Shown here: positions 10,515-56,603 of the stretch, piece by piece
How positions within the stretch are numbered: position 1 is the stretch's first letter
Layout: each line of letters begins with the position of its first letter
Origin: Coraliomargarita sp.
GTDB taxonomy: Bacteria; Verrucomicrobiota; Verrucomicrobiia; Opitutales; Coraliomargaritaceae
Direction: 5' to 3'
Length of the DNA: 64,000 bases
Assembly: GCA_965216325.1 (NCBI GenBank)
Contig: OZ244160.1
Span: forward strand, 2,016,001 to 2,080,000
Position numbers and translations under genes: made by a program
The notes under the pieces: generated by a model
What the model was told of the DNA's origin: nothing
Database searches by the model: none
The model's input: only the letters and a program-made list of their open reading frames with translations

Positions 10515-10594
10515 GTAGGGGCGTTGCTTGCAACGCCCGCAGTGTGGAGAGAATGCTTTGATGCTGTGGCGGGCTTCGCAAGCAAAGCCCCTAC
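10515..10594. repeat. GTAG REPIN (family C), intact copy matching the IS110 target
   Basis: GTAGGGGCGTTGCTTGCAACGCCCGC...GCGGGCTTCGCAAGCAAAGCCCCTAC. Confidence 0.88.
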
Positions 10595-10656
10595 GGTATG
10601 TTTGCGGATCACGAAAAGCGGTGGACAGCGCTACGTCTCTGTGTTCAGTAGCTCAA

Positions 10657-52926: not shown

Positions 52927-54132
52927 GTGCACTGCCTCATTCTAGGCAAGCTCTGGCCTGAGCCCTCTTCGACGGCGGCTGGGCGCCGCACTTTGGATAT
53001 TATCCGCACGCTGCGTGTTGCTGGCTGGGATGTTAGTTTTGCATCCGCAGCAACAGCGACGGAGCATACTATTGATCTCGGTCGATTAGGGGTCGAGGTG
53101 CGCGCAGTTGAGGTGAATGACTCCGTATTTGATTCATGGATACAAGAGCTGAATCCTGATGTTGTCGTGTTTGATCGATTTATGGTCGAGGAGCAATTCG
53201 GATGGCGTGTTGAGAAAGCCTGTCCTCAAACCTTGCGCGTCCTTGATACCAGCGATCTGCATTGTTTGCGCCATGCGCGCCAGCAGCAAGTGCTCAAGGG
53301 GGAAGCCTTTGATCTCTATAACGAGGTGGCTTTGCGCGAAATTGCATCGATTCATCGTTGTGATCTGTCATTGATGATTTCGGAGTATGAGGTGGATATA
53401 CTGCATCGCGAGTTTGCGATCCCGCAGGGGCAAGTGGCCTATTGGCCGTTTAGTGTAGAATTGTCCGATGCCCCGCAGCCTGCTTTTGATGCACGCCAAC
53501 ACTTTGTGATGATTGGTAGCTTCATGCATCCGCCGAATTTGGATGCAGCTCGTTGGTGTAAGCAGGCAATCTGGCCCTTAATTCGTGAGCAGCTTCCGGG
53601 GGCTGAGCTGCATTGTTATGGATCTTATGGCGAAAAGTATGCAGGCGAGCTGCATGCGCCAAAGGACGGTTTTTATTTTAAAGGCCGTGCTAAGGATGCG
53701 TTGGAAACCTTAGGGCAGTATCGCGTGAACCTTGCCCCCTTACGATTTGGTGCGGGGCTCAAGGGGAAGGTCTTCGATGGCTTCGAGGCTGGCACGCCGA
53801 CGGTGACAACGCAAGTCGGTGCGGAGGGAATTGCTCGTGAGGATGTTTGGGGATGTGTGCTGTCTGATGAGCCTGAGCAATTCTCTGCTGCAGCGGTAAG
53901 GCTCTATCGGGAGGTCGATTTTTGGCAGCAGGTTCAACAAAACGGGCGTTCGATTCTTAAGGAGCGCTTTGGCGCTGCTACGTGGCTGACGGAATTGCCT
54001 GCAATTCTAGAGGTTGGATTGTCCAGCCGTGCGGTGAATCGTCGACAGCATTTTGTGGGTCGAATGTTACGCCACCATCATCATCGCAGCACTGAGTTTA
54101 TGAGTCGTTGGATTGAGGCAAAGAATCGTTGA
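52927..54132 (+). CDS. glycosyltransferase (GT4-like)
   Basis: WPEPSSTAAG, FDRFMVEEQFGW, APLRFGAGLKGK. Confidence 0.88.
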   Translation: MHCLILGKLWPEPSSTAAGRRTLDIIRTLRVAGWDVSFASAATATEHTIDLGRLGVEVRAVEVNDSVFDSWIQELNPDVVVFDRFMVEEQFGWRVEKACPQTLRVLDTSDLHCLRHARQQQVLKGEAFDLYNEVALREIASIHRCDLSLMISEYEVDILHREFAIPQGQVAYWPFSVELSDAPQPAFDARQHFVMIGSFMHPPNLDAARWCKQAIWPLIREQLPGAELHCYGSYGEKYAGELHAPKDGFYFKGRAKDALETLGQYRVNLAPLRFGAGLKGKVFDGFEAGTPTVTTQVGAEGIAREDVWGCVLSDEPEQFSAAAVRLYREVDFWQQVQQNGRSILKERFGAATWLTELPAILEVGLSSRAVNRRQHFVGRMLRHHHHRSTEFMSRWIEAKNR

Positions 54133-54134
54133 TT

Positions 54135-54237
54135 GTAGGGGCGTTGCTTGCGACGCCCGCCGCGTTGGAGCAGCTTTACTGTCTGCGGGCTTCGCCATTC
54201 GGCCATAAGCTCATGGTCGAAGGCAAGCAAAGCCCCT
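54135..54237. repeat. family C REPIN with a nested 27-bp hairpin, interrupted at its terminal CT|AC by IS110
   Basis: GTAGGGGCGTTGCTTGCGACGCCCGC...GCAAGCAAAGCCCCT|; the missing AC resumes at 55680-55681. Confidence 0.87.
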
Positions 54238-54359
54238 GCTATGTTCGTTTCTGTCAAGAGTGTAGAAGCGTGTGAGTGTTTTTACATAAGATAAGTGGTT
54301 TGTTTTGATTGCAATCGTCTTTGAGCGTCCACCGCGCATGGCCTCGGAGTTTCGATGAT

Positions 54360-54515
54360 CCGGGATAACCTGCTATCCGTTTTTCTGAGTGTTTCTCAGA
54401 AGAGCACACTATGACCTATCCATTGGGTCATTCAAAAGCTTGGTGGCGAAGTGGCCTATTCTACAAAATCGTTGTGTTGGCAACAGGGGCTTGGTCAGAC
54501 TCACTCCGCACAAAG
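54360..54515 (-). ncRNA. putative bridge/seek RNA core (target- and donor-binding loops); RNA ends unknown
   Basis: Two stem-internal loop-stem modules whose loops match the REP target (AAGCCCCU, GUAG) and the circle junction (UCAUAG, AUAGC). Confidence 0.72.
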
Positions 54516-54573
54516 GAAAACTGCAAAAGAACGTTAAAATCAGAGGGTGAAGGCCTTTAGCGTTGGTTCGGAC

Positions 54574-55662
54574 TTATGGGTTTTGTCTGCTTATCAGTCC
54601 GAAGTCTTCGAGACTGCATTGGCCAGTGCGTATGCGCCACCAGTCCACGGCGAACTGCCGGGCGATGGCCACGGCAATTTTCTTGCGGGTCGCCTTACTG
54701 GTGGTCTCGTCGCTGAGCTTGGCCTGCCATTTACGCACCCCACTGTAGCCGGGATTCCACCGGATCAATAACCAGGCGCACTCTTGTAGCATATGCCGCA
54801 GGCGGGGACTGCCGTGTTTGTTGATCGAGCCCTGGAAACGCCGATTTGCACTAGTGTCTTCGCTTGGGCACAGTCCGGTAAAGGAACTGACCGCCTTGCG
54901 GTTGTTGAATCGCTTCCAGTTGCAGACCTCACGTTCGATCTGTTCATAGAGGACCACCCCCATGCCTTTAGGCAGCACCCGTTCCGGCTCGAGCGCTTCG
55001 ATACGTTCTTCGATGTTGCTGATTAGCTCGCTAAAGTGCAGGCAGTTTAACCGCAGTGGCTCCAGCAGGCTGATCAAAAAATCGTCGAGCTGTTCGAGTA
55101 GCTGCATCCATTTGCGCGGCTTCCACCAGCCGCTGGGTAAGGGTTGATCGTAATACAGTCCCAGACTCTTACCACGCTTGGCCGCACGGCCACGTTCTTT
55201 GACGAAGCTTTCACGCTGCCGGGTTAGGCTGCGGTGACGCTCTTCTTGCTCGCTGGGCACACGCACGACACTGAAGCTGCGGTCATTGCCCCGCAGATAG
55301 CCGTCCAGACTCAAGACCATTTGCAACGCATCACGCGCGTCGGTCTTTACCTTCTTACCATGAGTGTCCCAGTTGATCGGGCGGATTACGTGGTTGTTCA
55401 CGCCCATCGCCTTGAGCTTGCGGTGCAGGCTGTAACCAAAAGGACCGGCCTCGTAGCAACTTTGCAACTGCTCGCACTGAGTGCTCAGCTGCTTAATCCA
55501 TCGAAGGAAGATATCAGGCTTCATGCGCTTCGCGCGTGAAGGGGCGCTGCTATCGATCTTCATGACCACCACGTAGGTGCTCGCATGCACGTCAATGCCA
55601 AGCTTGATTACTGTGCCCAGTGCGTTCTTAGTTGTCCGTGTAGATGATGTGGGGTTTTGCAT
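54574..55662 (-). CDS. IS110-family DEDD recombinase/transposase
   Basis: LGIDVH, CYEAGPFG, KTDARDA (DEDD), FTGLCPSEDTSA (Tnp-domain Ser), INKHGSPRLR. Confidence 0.95.
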   Translation of the reverse strand: MQNPTSSTRTTKNALGTVIKLGIDVHASTYVVVMKIDSSAPSRAKRMKPDIFLRWIKQLSTQCEQLQSCYEAGPFGYSLHRKLKAMGVNNHVIRPINWDTHGKKVKTDARDALQMVLSLDGYLRGNDRSFSVVRVPSEQEERHRSLTRQRESFVKERGRAAKRGKSLGLYYDQPLPSGWWKPRKWMQLLEQLDDFLISLLEPLRLNCLHFSELISNIEERIEALEPERVLPKGMGVVLYEQIEREVCNWKRFNNRKAVSSFTGLCPSEDTSANRRFQGSINKHGSPRLRHMLQECAWLLIRWNPGYSGVRKWQAKLSDETTSKATRKKIAVAIARQFAVDWWRIRTGQCSLEDFGLISRQNP

Positions 55663-55721
55663 AAGTTTATCATCATAGCACTTCCGTGCTCCTGATAAAC
55701 GCCCATGTCATCTTCGTTTTA

Positions 55722-56603
55722 TTAGCCTAGCACTTGCTGCAGGCGTTCGATGAGCTCGGCGCGGATGGGGCGGGCGGCTTCGGAGAGTTTGCGTTGGCGA
55801 CGCTCGTAGGTGGCGCGGCCTGTGGCGGTTTCGACGGGTATGGCGTCGTAGCCGAGCGAGCTGCAGTCGTAAGCGCTCGCTTGCATGTCGAGTTCGCGTG
55901 CGCGAATGGCCAATTCGAAACTCTTCCACAATAGTTCCGAACCGACCCAAGGCATGCATTGGGCGGCCAGTTTGTAGAGGTCCATGTTGGTGTGTAGGCA
56001 GCCGCACTGTTCGTTGTCGAGGCGGTCGTCTTTGCCGGGCTGGATGCGATTGAAGCGCTTGGCGGATGGTGTAAAGAAGCGGAAGGCGTCGAAGTGGCTG
56101 CAGTTGATCGGGCGGCTTTCGACGAAGGCATTCACTTCTGCTTGGCTGAGGCGCAGGGGCAGCTTTTCGCCGTGACGGATTTCACCGTCGTTATCGCCGC
56201 GATACACCATGGCCCACTCATGCATGCCGAAACATCCGAACTGTGGCGGGCGGGCGTGCACGGCCTTAGAGAGCTTGAGGGCGAAACTCAAACGACGCCG
56301 GTTGCCTGCATCCAGCTTGGATGGATCCAAGACGAGTCGGCCATCCTGGGCCGTATAGAACTTCTCGTTAAACGCGTGTGGCTGGTTACCGAGCTCCAGT
56401 GCGACCCCCAGCCCGGGATGCCATGCCTCCAGTTGGGCGGGTGCGTTGCGGTAGTAAATGAAGAGAAAGTCGTAGATCGGGTGCATCTTGCCCGAGGCGC
56501 GCCGCTTGCGGTAGGGCGCCGTCCATGCTTCTGCTCGTGCCCGATGGGTGTTTGCCCTGTGGCGCCATGCTTCGAGACTTTGGTGTATGTGTGTCGTTGG
56601 CAT
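55722..56603 (-). CDS. conserved hypothetical protein (family often labelled 3-methyladenine DNA glycosylase; function not supported here)
   Basis: HPIYDFLF.YY, CFGMHEWAMVY, CSHFDAFRFF, GCLHTNMDLYK, RELDMQAS.YD. Confidence 0.75.
   Translation of the reverse strand: MPTTHIHQSLEAWRHRANTHRARAEAWTAPYRKRRASGKMHPIYDFLFIYYRNAPAQLEAWHPGLGVALELGNQPHAFNEKFYTAQDGRLVLDPSKLDAGNRRRLSFALKLSKAVHARPPQFGCFGMHEWAMVYRGDNDGEIRHGEKLPLRLSQAEVNAFVESRPINCSHFDAFRFFTPSAKRFNRIQPGKDDRLDNEQCGCLHTNMDLYKLAAQCMPWVGSELLWKSFELAIRARELDMQASAYDCSSLGYDAIPVETATGRATYERRQRKLSEAARPIRAELIERLQQVLG

Follow-up and report, generated by a model that had tools for sequence, protein, structure and literature searches.

In the current analysis, the segment 54238-55713 of a 64,000-nucleotide stretch of Coraliomargarita sp. 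DNA (contig OZ244160.1; the whole stretch is referred to as the window) has been recognised as an insertion sequence which is, with high confidence, a member of the IS110 family with IS1111-type architecture, in which a bridge (seek) RNA encoded in the 3' region guides recombination at a CT dinucleotide into REPs. Nine copies are present in the genome, eight of them identical and the window copy differing by one SNP. They show the site-specific insertion, the shared core dinucleotide and the lack of a classical target-site duplication that characterise the IS110 family. A preliminary description of the locus had proposed an IS110-family element targeting multi-copy REPs, which agrees with the two family domains of the transposase and with the sequence AAGCCCCT that precedes all nine copies. 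The features considered are collected in Table 1.

Table 1. Positions of the features of the insertion sequence and its target repeats, numbered from the first nucleotide of the window (a slash in a sequence marks the point of insertion)
Feature	Position	Strand	Details
Insertion sequence	54238..55713	- (transposase sense)	1476 bp with one CT counted; from copy ends and empty-allele joint
Transposase/recombinase, DEDD/Ser	54574..55662	-	362 aa; PF02371 and PF01548
Element left end, 5' of transposase	55663..55713	-	51 nt; starts AG-ATGAC, followed by subterminal inverted repeat
Predicted bridge/seekRNA, two internal-loop domains	54325..54509	-	about 185 nt; alignment A1 of 8 elements
Target loop 5' strand (LTG-like), AAGCCCCU	54485..54492	-	equals target left side and core
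Target loop 3' strand (RTG-like), GUAG	54461..54464	-	complement of CT/AC
Donor loop 3' strand (RDG-like), AUAGCAG	54370..54376	-	equals element right end and core
Candidate donor loop 5' strand (LDG-like), GUCAU	54411..54415	-	complements left-end ATGAC; tentative
TTGACA, -35-like hexamer	54252..54257	-	14 nt from right end; CTTGAC conserved in relatives
Single difference of window copy	54381		T here, G in the 8 other copies
First REP-doublet (REPIN) arm	54135..54159	+	begins GTAG; arm type as in 10516-10540
Second, inverted REP arm	54186..54237	+	ends in AAGCCCCT; core CT at 54236-54237
Palindromic insert in second REP arm	about 54196-54224		about 27-29 nt
First right-flank base	55714		T here; C in 3 empty-allele contigs; A in the other 8 copies
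Vacant perfect target, AAGCCCCTAC	10585..10594	+	end of REP doublet 10516-10596; sole such site in the window

The transposase matches PF02371 (E 4.9e-14, 52.9 bits) and PF01548 (E 9.4e-7, 29.2 bits, just above the cut-off of 29), and it scores 137.8 bits, slightly below the cut-off of 140, with the NCBIfam model NF033542, IS110 family RNA-guided transposase. Its organisation is that of the family, a DEDD (RuvC-like) N-terminal domain followed by a C-terminal Transposase_20 domain that bears a conserved Ser, and the residues D24, E71, D108, D111 and Ser271 are invariant across 20 homologues. A profile search of the PDB gave weak matches to the recombinases of ISCro4 (E 4.9e-4) and IS621 (E 4.5e-3), and the single-sequence search of the same database with phmmer gave no match.

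The placement within the family is based on the layout of the element, which carries 336 nt of non-coding sequence 3' of the transposase gene as against 51 nt 5' of it, the long downstream region being a trait of the IS1111 subgroup. That the element lies outside the strict IS1111 group, as a separate IS110-family lineage that has a downstream non-coding region by happenstance, is considered rather unlikely. The length of 362 aa and the finger motif GLCPSEDTSA speak for such a lineage, as IS1111 transposases are described with 330-350 aa and the motif GL-P----S(T)G, with TA as an occasional variant, and a downstream position of the non-coding region is also described for some IS110-type groups (PMC11187229). 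The subterminal inverted repeat, reported to be of 7-17 bp in IS1111 elements (PMC11187229), is also weak here, its score in this element alone being reached by 189/1000 shuffles and by 78/300 in a second test, which is not significant. Against this, the non-coding region lies 3' of the gene and the order of the guides is of IS1111 type; in 25 of 32 relatives the best inverted repeat is found in one common subterminal register (base 8 from the left end, base 4 from the right end), and in 21 of the 32 its score is reached by no more than 5 of 300 shuffles.

The 3' region of the element encodes a predicted two-loop bridge/seekRNA, whose expression and processing are likewise predicted from sequence. 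RNAalifold applied to the alignment A1 gave 38 consensus pairs, with 91.4% of the cells paired as against 35.5-47.3% with slid partners and with 17 pairs changed on both sides as against 3-7; the score of the fold was reached by none of 500 shuffles. Rfam release 15, searched with the region 53800-56000, contained no match at E <= 1. The predicted RNA resembles bridge RNAs and seekRNAs in being structured and in having loop strands that match both strands of the target and overlap at the core.

The target-loop strands co-vary with the insertion flanks across relatives, which were drawn from Opitutales genomes and metagenomes. At least 7 nt ending at the core are shared between the left guide and the flank in 32 of 46 non-redundant cognate RNA/flank pairs, as against 128 of 1466 non-cognate ones. 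The left guides differ together with their flanks, reading AAGCCCCU in the element itself, UGAAGCCCCU in L042, AACACCCCU in L064, CGAGCCCU in L091, UGACUCCU in L047 and CUCCCCUCCU in L041. The right guide matches by at least 4 nt in 31/40 cognate pairs as against 132/1146 non-cognate pairs and follows the flank among the relatives, with GUAG facing GT/AG, GAAG facing GA/AG and AAAG facing AA/AG; the guides CGCCAAG and AAUCAAG match their flanks over 7 nt.

On the donor side, the AUAGCAG strand matches the right end and the core in nearly all the elements. Little co-variation is to be seen there because this strand and the right end are both almost invariant: ACGGATAGCAGG is near-invariant among the elements and so is the right end, CATAGC followed by AG. 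Comparison of the left-donor guide with the variant left ends of L079, L080, L090, L103 and L104 gave no clear co-variation, and the right ends of L079, L090, L103 and L104 were not located. The assignment of GUCAU as LDG is therefore based on its position and a 5-nt match only.

The repeats into which the element is inserted are GTAG-tagged, multi-copy palindromes arranged in inverted doublets, and the family includes a Y1 (HUH) gene flanked by the repeats, as is expected for REPs or REPINs with a RAYT. This RAYT-like gene (G000:C1:1680061-1680609) has on both sides REP doublets with the targeted arm type, of which AAGCCCCT is characteristic. The genome contains 16 matches to PF01797; among 12 places checked for adjacent repeat ends, one was positive within 1.5 kb. 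In eight of the nine copies the insertion parts GT from AG of the REP tag GTAG, which reads CT/AC on the + strand of the window, and its orientation relative to the REP is fixed. Since AC follows eight of the nine copies, the insertion point is the CT of ...CCCCT/AC, with CT on both sides. The genome has 193 intact GCCCCTAC repeat ends, only 34 of which are of the AAGCCCCTAC type and are unoccupied. With nine of nine insertions after AAGCCCCT, as against 34 of 193 intact ends of that type, the preference is beyond chance. The unoccupied target that had been pointed out at 10585-10594 is indeed intact and perfect.

A mechanism may be proposed in which the loop with AAGCCCCU and GUAG would pair with both strands of the REP end ...AAGCC(CT)AC, the two strands overlapping at the core CT. 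The second loop, through AUAGCAG and probably GUCAU, would correspond to the sequence formed when the ends of the excised element are joined (...CATAGC-AG-ATGAC...). The complex of recombinase and RNA would then recombine a presumed circular form of the element with the REP at the common CT, so that CT stands on either side of the insertion and nothing else is duplicated. Landing sites, multi-copy and mostly intergenic, would be provided by the AAGCCCCTAC-type REPs, 34 of which are still empty. The choice of target, for which the preliminary description gave no mechanism, would thus be explained by the guide RNA in the 3' region of the element. According to this model, insertion is expected into AAGCCCCTAC, with little or none into the other arm type ACGCCCCTAC and with reduced frequency into AAGCCCCTCC and AAGCCCCTTC.

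Every target is a REP with a stem-loop, and the possibility has to be considered that the hairpin of the REP or its GTAG tag is recognised by the protein, in the manner of REP-specific IS3-family elements and RAYTs, the 3' region being merely a UTR or terminator. The genome has 131 AAGCCCCT sites; the 84 that are found outside a REP-like context are all unoccupied, and for ISPpu10 the stem-loop of the target is reported to add specificity (10.64898/2026.03.19.712850). The figure of 0/84 alone proves no extra specificity, because selection against insertions in genes could enrich REPs. Recognition by the protein in place of the RNA is very unlikely, given that the loop strands co-vary with the flanks across elements with different targets and that compensatory changes preserve the fold of the RNA. 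The REP hairpin may well make a real structural contribution in addition to the RNA pairing.

The ends of the element are identical in all nine copies. The left junction given in the preliminary description, AAGCCCCT/GCTATG at 54237/54238, is the same throughout and coincides with the empty-allele joint's left side. The right junction, which had been placed at CATAGC/ACTTCC (55679/55680), lies inside the element: the following 34 bases (55680-55713, ending in ...CATCT) are identical in 9/9 copies and the flanks diverge only beyond them. As none of the 9 genomes of the same family has a relative at E <= 1e-60, the empty allele was sought in metagenome contigs. The empty allele that had been called for was found in contigs of three of four metagenome runs (X6, X7 and X8, from three studies), in which one C alone separates 54237 from 55715. 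CT is present on both sides of the element, at 54236-54237 and at 55712-55713, and the earlier statement that the target is not duplicated is correct as the term is normally used for this family.

It is hardly credible that the element is 54238-55679 with 6-bp terminal inverted repeats GCTATG/CATAGC, as had been described, for which the quoted strings do exist in the sequence and deletion of 54238-55679 yields the canonical REP end ...CCCCTAC on paper; the identity of the next 34 bases in the nine copies, the empty-allele joint and the conserved left-end stretch AGATGACAT, which is kept in related elements and falls beyond 55679, all stand against it. The apparent restoration of the end at 10578-10594 arose because the AC used for it lies inside the element. 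Removal of the true element instead gives AAGCCCCT followed by CC in the empty alleles, or by TC in the window strain. Equally remote is the view that the REP-like flanks belong to the mobile unit and the element brings its own REP arms, since the same 8 bases do lie left of all the copies but farther left the copies differ as independent REPs do, 34 solo AAGCCCCTAC sites exist and the empty allele keeps the entire REP doublet.

The restored site at the window locus is therefore CT/CC (empty alleles) or CT/TC (occupied strain) and not CT/AC, and the right flank of the window copy mismatches the GUAG guide. Insertion into the motif GTAG, as previously stated for this locus, applies to the eight other copies, where it falls between GT and AG, but at the window locus the tag was not GTAG beforehand. 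Similarly, the expectation that other copies would all be flanked by the REP end and AC is borne out on the left in all nine and on the right in eight. The claimed destruction of the tag is not a simple loss: GT and AG come together again at the 5' end of the element, and the hairpin now has GCAG before it. The T at 54381 turns the conserved CACGG of the RNA into AACGG and disrupts a conserved pair (alignment columns 124-148, 'GA:1'); a contig of the metagenome run X5 has G at this position. The window copy is thus atypical, residing in a REP with a degenerate tag (one mismatch to GUAG) and carrying a change in a conserved stem of its RNA gene.

The second REP arm contains extra bases that had been noted as a nested hairpin and interpreted as a second element in this REP. 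The bases are present, but they are not unique to this REP: a genome census by plain regular expression showed that at least 7 REPs carry the insert, and a longer variant occurs in at least 5 further ones (4 by regular expression and 1 flanking an IS copy). The insert is also present in the empty allele, the X6 contig showing 0 differences over 53941-54237. It is a recurrent REP variant that is older than the insertion. The first REP arm starts 3 bases past the stop codon of a glycosyltransferase ORF (52927-54132).

Both the targeting of REPs by IS110-family elements, published since at least 2006 (PMC1525189), and RNA guidance are already known. IS621 of E. coli, of the IS110 group, resembles the window element in its DEDD/Ser recombinase and its CT core; its natural target is described as the REP end ATCAGGC-CT-AC, with the same CT/AC position in the GTAG tag, and its left guide corresponds to the top strand and core with a right guide of 4 nt, in the same polarity and with overlap at the core (PMC11208160). 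Unlike IS621, in which the RNA lies 5' of the gene, the window element has its RNA on the 3' side, and the reading direction of both RNA and transposase is opposite to the CT strand. The proteins are distant (no phmmer match; profile E 4.5e-3), and the hosts are Enterobacteria for IS621 and Opitutales for the window element.

The seekRNA elements of the IS1111 group (ISEc11, ISPa11, ISKpn4 and ISPst6) are described as having a downstream non-coding region and a short guide RNA, in which the match to the top strand is 5' of that to the bottom strand, with an overlap of both in the target, as well as subterminal inverted repeats with short terminal extensions, a feature weak in the window copy (PMC11187229). 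ISPa11 is reported at a fixed insertion position in REPs (PMC1525189). The longer transposase of the window element and the SA in place of S/T-G in its finger motif set it apart from these elements. For ISPpu9 and ISPpu10 of Pseudomonas putida, likened here by their descriptions, all copies are reported in REPs in the same position and orientation, and circles form by AG-AG recombination; they differ in belonging to the IS110 group with the RNA upstream, and ISPpu9 in having the extra sRNAs Asr9 and Ssr9 (PMC1525189, PMC12288879).

It is quite possible, and is put forward tentatively, that a marine Opitutales clade of IS1111-like elements has tracked the REP/RAYT systems of its hosts with a fixed right guide and a rewritten left guide. 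The right guide would have stayed constant on the GTAG tag common to RAYT-type repeats, and the left guide would have been rewritten repeatedly to the REP stem of the host, as in AAGCCCCU, UGAAGCCCCU, AACACCCCU and CGGCCCU and further in CGAGCCCU, GCCCCUCCU, UUUGCUCCU and ACCUCCU. If so, the element would live as a parasite on another mobile system, and since insertion parts the REP hairpin from its tag it may disable the mobility of that REPIN; the insertion at the degenerate tag of the window locus would then illustrate the natural tolerance of the right guide to mismatch.

To the mechanism itself this element adds nothing new. Its value is that of a clean natural case in which the ends are exact, 9 sites are occupied and 34 empty, and the empty allele is known from the environment; its bridge RNA can be read directly against the target in Verrucomicrobiota, where such elements are unstudied in the cited literature. 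The natural guide/target pairs could be used for testing the rules of 3'-encoded bridge RNAs. For annotation, the case cautions that a single copy cannot place the ends of an element and that a repeat which seems perfectly restored may be so by accident.

Outside the taxonomic family, 9 of 200 genomes of the order carry a relative at E <= 1e-60, as against 0 of 9 within it. The hexamer TTGACA close to the right end could provide a junction promoter in the circular form; a sigma-70 promoter scan of 54100-55800 gave no site in the linear element, and the 3 terminator-like sites in the same region are no excess over shuffles (mean 2.3).

To check the suggestion that REPs are safe sites, the nine restored landing sites were also surveyed for mechanical ORFs of at least 80 aa running across them. 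No such ORF crosses five of the nine sites. At one site a 732-aa frame begins 21 codons before the site and has its next start 59 nt after it, and the insertion is probably just upstream of the gene. At another, a 239-aa frame runs across the REP doublet and is probably spurious.

In the current analysis we have identified a new, unnamed, REP-targeting member of the RNA-guided IS110 family of insertion sequences. It is situated in a doublet of inverted REP arms, short palindromic repeats with a GTAG tag, that follows a glycosyltransferase ORF stopping at 54132. The transposase has matches to two Pfam families (see table) that bear out the IS110 assignment of the preliminary description, and scores 137.8 bits with the NCBIfam 'IS110 family RNA-guided transposase' model, just under the cut-off of 140. 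Read in transposase sense, the 5' end of the element measures 51 nt and the 3' non-coding region 336 nt. A 293-aa ORF without Pfam match (55722-56603, minus strand) ends 9 bases from the right end, and the element thus sits between two convergent genes.

Features of the element, its predicted RNA and the targeted repeats (window positions unless marked G000:C1, the contig of the same genome)
Feature	Position	Strand	Remark
REP doublet, first arm	from 54135		starts with GTAG
REP doublet, inverted second arm	54186-54237		ends ...AAGCCCCT
Donor loop, AUAGCAG	54370-54376		equals right end plus core
Donor loop, candidate GUCAU	54411-54415		complementary to ATGAC that begins left end
Target loop, 3' strand	54461-54464		contains GUAG; domain closed by 8-bp stem
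Target loop, 5' strand AAGCCCCU	54485-54492		short hairpin next
Transposase ORF, 362 aa	54574-55662	minus	PF02371 (E 4.9e-14), PF01548 (E 9.4e-7)
RAYT-like HUH/Y1 ORF, 182 aa	G000:C1:1680061-1680609		doublets with targeted arm type on both sides

The genome, assembled as one contig of 3,064,510 bases, encodes nine full copies of 54238-55679, the interval first taken as the element. The left junction proposed at 54237/54238, AAGCCCCT|GCTATG, is identical in the flank alignment of all nine copies and forms the left side of the empty-allele joint. The right junction had been placed 34 bp short, at 55679: bases 55680-55713, ending in CATCT, are also the same in 9/9 copies and the right flanks diverge only beyond 55713. 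The element thus spans 54238-55713 (1476 bp), with CT at both sides. A search for the empty allele had been suggested, and three runs of seawater or marine metagenomes (X6, X7 and X8), belonging to three studies, provide it; their contigs join 54237 to 55715 via a single C, read ...AAGCCCCT-C-CGTTTT... and constitute independent proof of the ends. The exact restoration of ...CCCCTAC claimed earlier arose by accident from an AC that belongs to the element. The REP tag at this locus was already non-canonical: the empty alleles have CT|CC and the occupied strain has CT|TC. At position 55714 the occupied allele has T where the three empty-allele contigs all have C, a difference that may be either polymorphism among strains or linked to the insertion. 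The flanks AAGCCCCT|AC expected of all copies hold on the left side in 9/9, but the right side is AC in eight copies and TC in the window copy. The preliminary observation is thus confirmed in part, being right on left junction, family and REP target and wrong on right junction and restored site, and its interpretation is partly supported.

The nested hairpin described in the second REP arm is present as some 27-29 additional palindromic bases at about 54196-54224. At least 7 REPs share this insert, with small differences, and at least 5 others carry a longer version of about 38 nt. Three of the nine IS copies sit in such REPs; the hairpin variant is a recurrent REP subtype. It predates the insertion, since the X6 empty-allele contig covers 53941-54237 without difference. 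As to the destruction of the GTAG tag proposed before, the hairpin in the REP sense now has GCAG before it instead of GTAG, and GT together with the AG of the element makes up GTAG again at the other end, 1.5 kb from the hairpin. Another hairpin-variant REP (G000:C1:1266361-1266371) ends ...AAGCCCCT-GCT-AC. The three additional bases, GCT, are those with which the + strand end of the element begins; they contain CT and might, speculatively, be a footprint of excision at the inner CT. This 11-mer has just one further occurrence in the genome, which appears to be coding.

The genome has 193 GCCCCTAC ends, which fall by the two bases before them into GC (55), AC (37), AA (34) and smaller classes. 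All nine insertions follow AA-type ends, in agreement with the REP as target, and 34 intact AA-type copies are left, including 10585-10594, rightly pointed out as unoccupied. A compensated pair in the REP stem sets the two main arm types of a doublet apart; with insertions at the AA type only, the element therefore tells one arm from the other. Of the 131 AAGCCCCT sites, 84 lie outside any REP-like context and all 84 are unoccupied, an emptiness in which selection against insertions in genes could have a share.

The targeted repeats are a genuine REP/RAYT system, RAYT being the REP-associated transposase. The genome has 16 PF01797 matches, of which twelve were checked for repeat ends nearby, and only one of the twelve has these ends within 1.5 kb. 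The RAYT-like gene stops at a TAG that forms part of the GTAG of the REP downstream. GTAG-tagged REPs have been reported before in Verrucomicrobia (PMC3733652). Directly right of IS copy 6 lies a tandem array (G000:C1:1553952-1555560) of about 5.5 units of about 292 bp, each with two REP doublets (BIME-like); several units end ...AAAGCCCTAC, one C fewer than the target.

Two internal-loop domains are predicted in the 3' non-coding region from the minimum-free-energy fold and alignment with relatives. In the target loop, AAGCCCCU is the + strand of the target through the core CT, core included, and GUAG is the complement of CT|AC. The insertion site would be chosen by these strands matching the REP end and overlapping at the core. 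In the donor loop, AUAGCAG and the right end CATAGC+AG agree but cannot co-vary because both are nearly invariant among relatives; GUCAU is tentatively assigned as the left-donor strand.

Relatives were collected from same-order genomes (E <= 1e-60; 10 of 201, this genome included, and none of nine other genomes of the same family), species-representative genomes (20 loci) and metagenomes (55 loci). In the consensus fold of eight diverse elements (38 pairs), 91.4% of cells are paired, against 35.5-47.3% with partners slid by 1-3 columns; 17 pairs have changed on both sides, against 3-7, and the co-variation score is reached by 0/500 shuffles. Loop strands and flanks were read for all elements whose ends conserved end motifs could locate. 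At least 7 bases ending at the core are shared in 32/46 non-redundant pairs of RNA and left target (non-cognate 128/1466), and the right guide matches at least 4 bases in 31/40 pairs (non-cognate 132/1146). The right-guide classes are distinct, GUAG going with GT|AG, GAAG with GA|AG and AAAG with AA|AG; in two elements the match, to CAAG-type flanks, extends over 7 nt. Among the misses are copies whose gene is frameshifted and flanks off by a single base or indel. The closest relatives (loci L042, L062, L064 and L091; transposases 72-74% identical) and also L068, L112 and L020 are at GTAG-type REP-like palindromes, and each left guide fits its own repeat.

A second, single-copy IS110-family element of this genome (L041, G000:C1:2769548-2770597; transposase 46% identical) has the same 3' RNA architecture and a left guide, CUCCCCUCCU, with a 10-nt match to the element's own flank. 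Related copies are also recorded in Candidatus Synoicihabitans (L043-L045, L050, L051, L055-L058); in one MAG many have frameshifted transposase genes, seen as split tblastn matches, and a nearly intact RNA region.

Guide polarity, core overlap and the 4-nt right guide are all as described for IS621, which has ATCAGGC-CT-AC as its natural REP target (PMC11208160). RNA guidance of the family was shown in 2024 (PMC11208160; PMC11187229). REP targeting with every copy at the same REP position is described for ISPa11, ISPpu9, ISPpu10, ISRm19 and, earlier, IS621 (PMC1525189); ISPpu9 recombines at an AG found at both ends (PMC12288879), and a preprint on ISPpu10 gives the target stem-loop a role also (10.64898/2026.03.19.712850). 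The element shows no departure from these descriptions, and the supplements of the papers may list related elements.

In the element alone, the highest-scoring inverted repeat between the two ends does not reach significance. Among 32 related elements, 25 share one register for it, starting 5 bases in from the left end, counted after the core, and 3 bases in from the right end, and in 21 its score is reached by at most 5/300 shuffles. This register appears to be the subterminal arrangement of IS1111-type elements, bracketing a short donor sequence. The short 5' end with a long 3' non-coding region and the top-strand match lying 5' of the bottom-strand match also agree with that type as laid out in PMC11187229. 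In contrast, the protein has 362 aa and its finger motif ends in SA, where IS1111 has S/T-G; since these count against strict membership, the element is filed as IS110 family with IS1111-like architecture.

The atypical copy among the nine is the one in the window. In its right flank the base adjoining the core does not match GUAG, and the single base separating the copies, 54381, is T in this copy and G in the remaining eight, as well as in a 1332-nt contig of the element itself from metagenome run X5. This private change converts CACGG, conserved in the donor-loop stem, to AACGG and breaks a pair kept in the other seven aligned sequences. The other eight copies could supply RNA in trans to the window copy; trans action has been shown for IS621 (PMC11208160).
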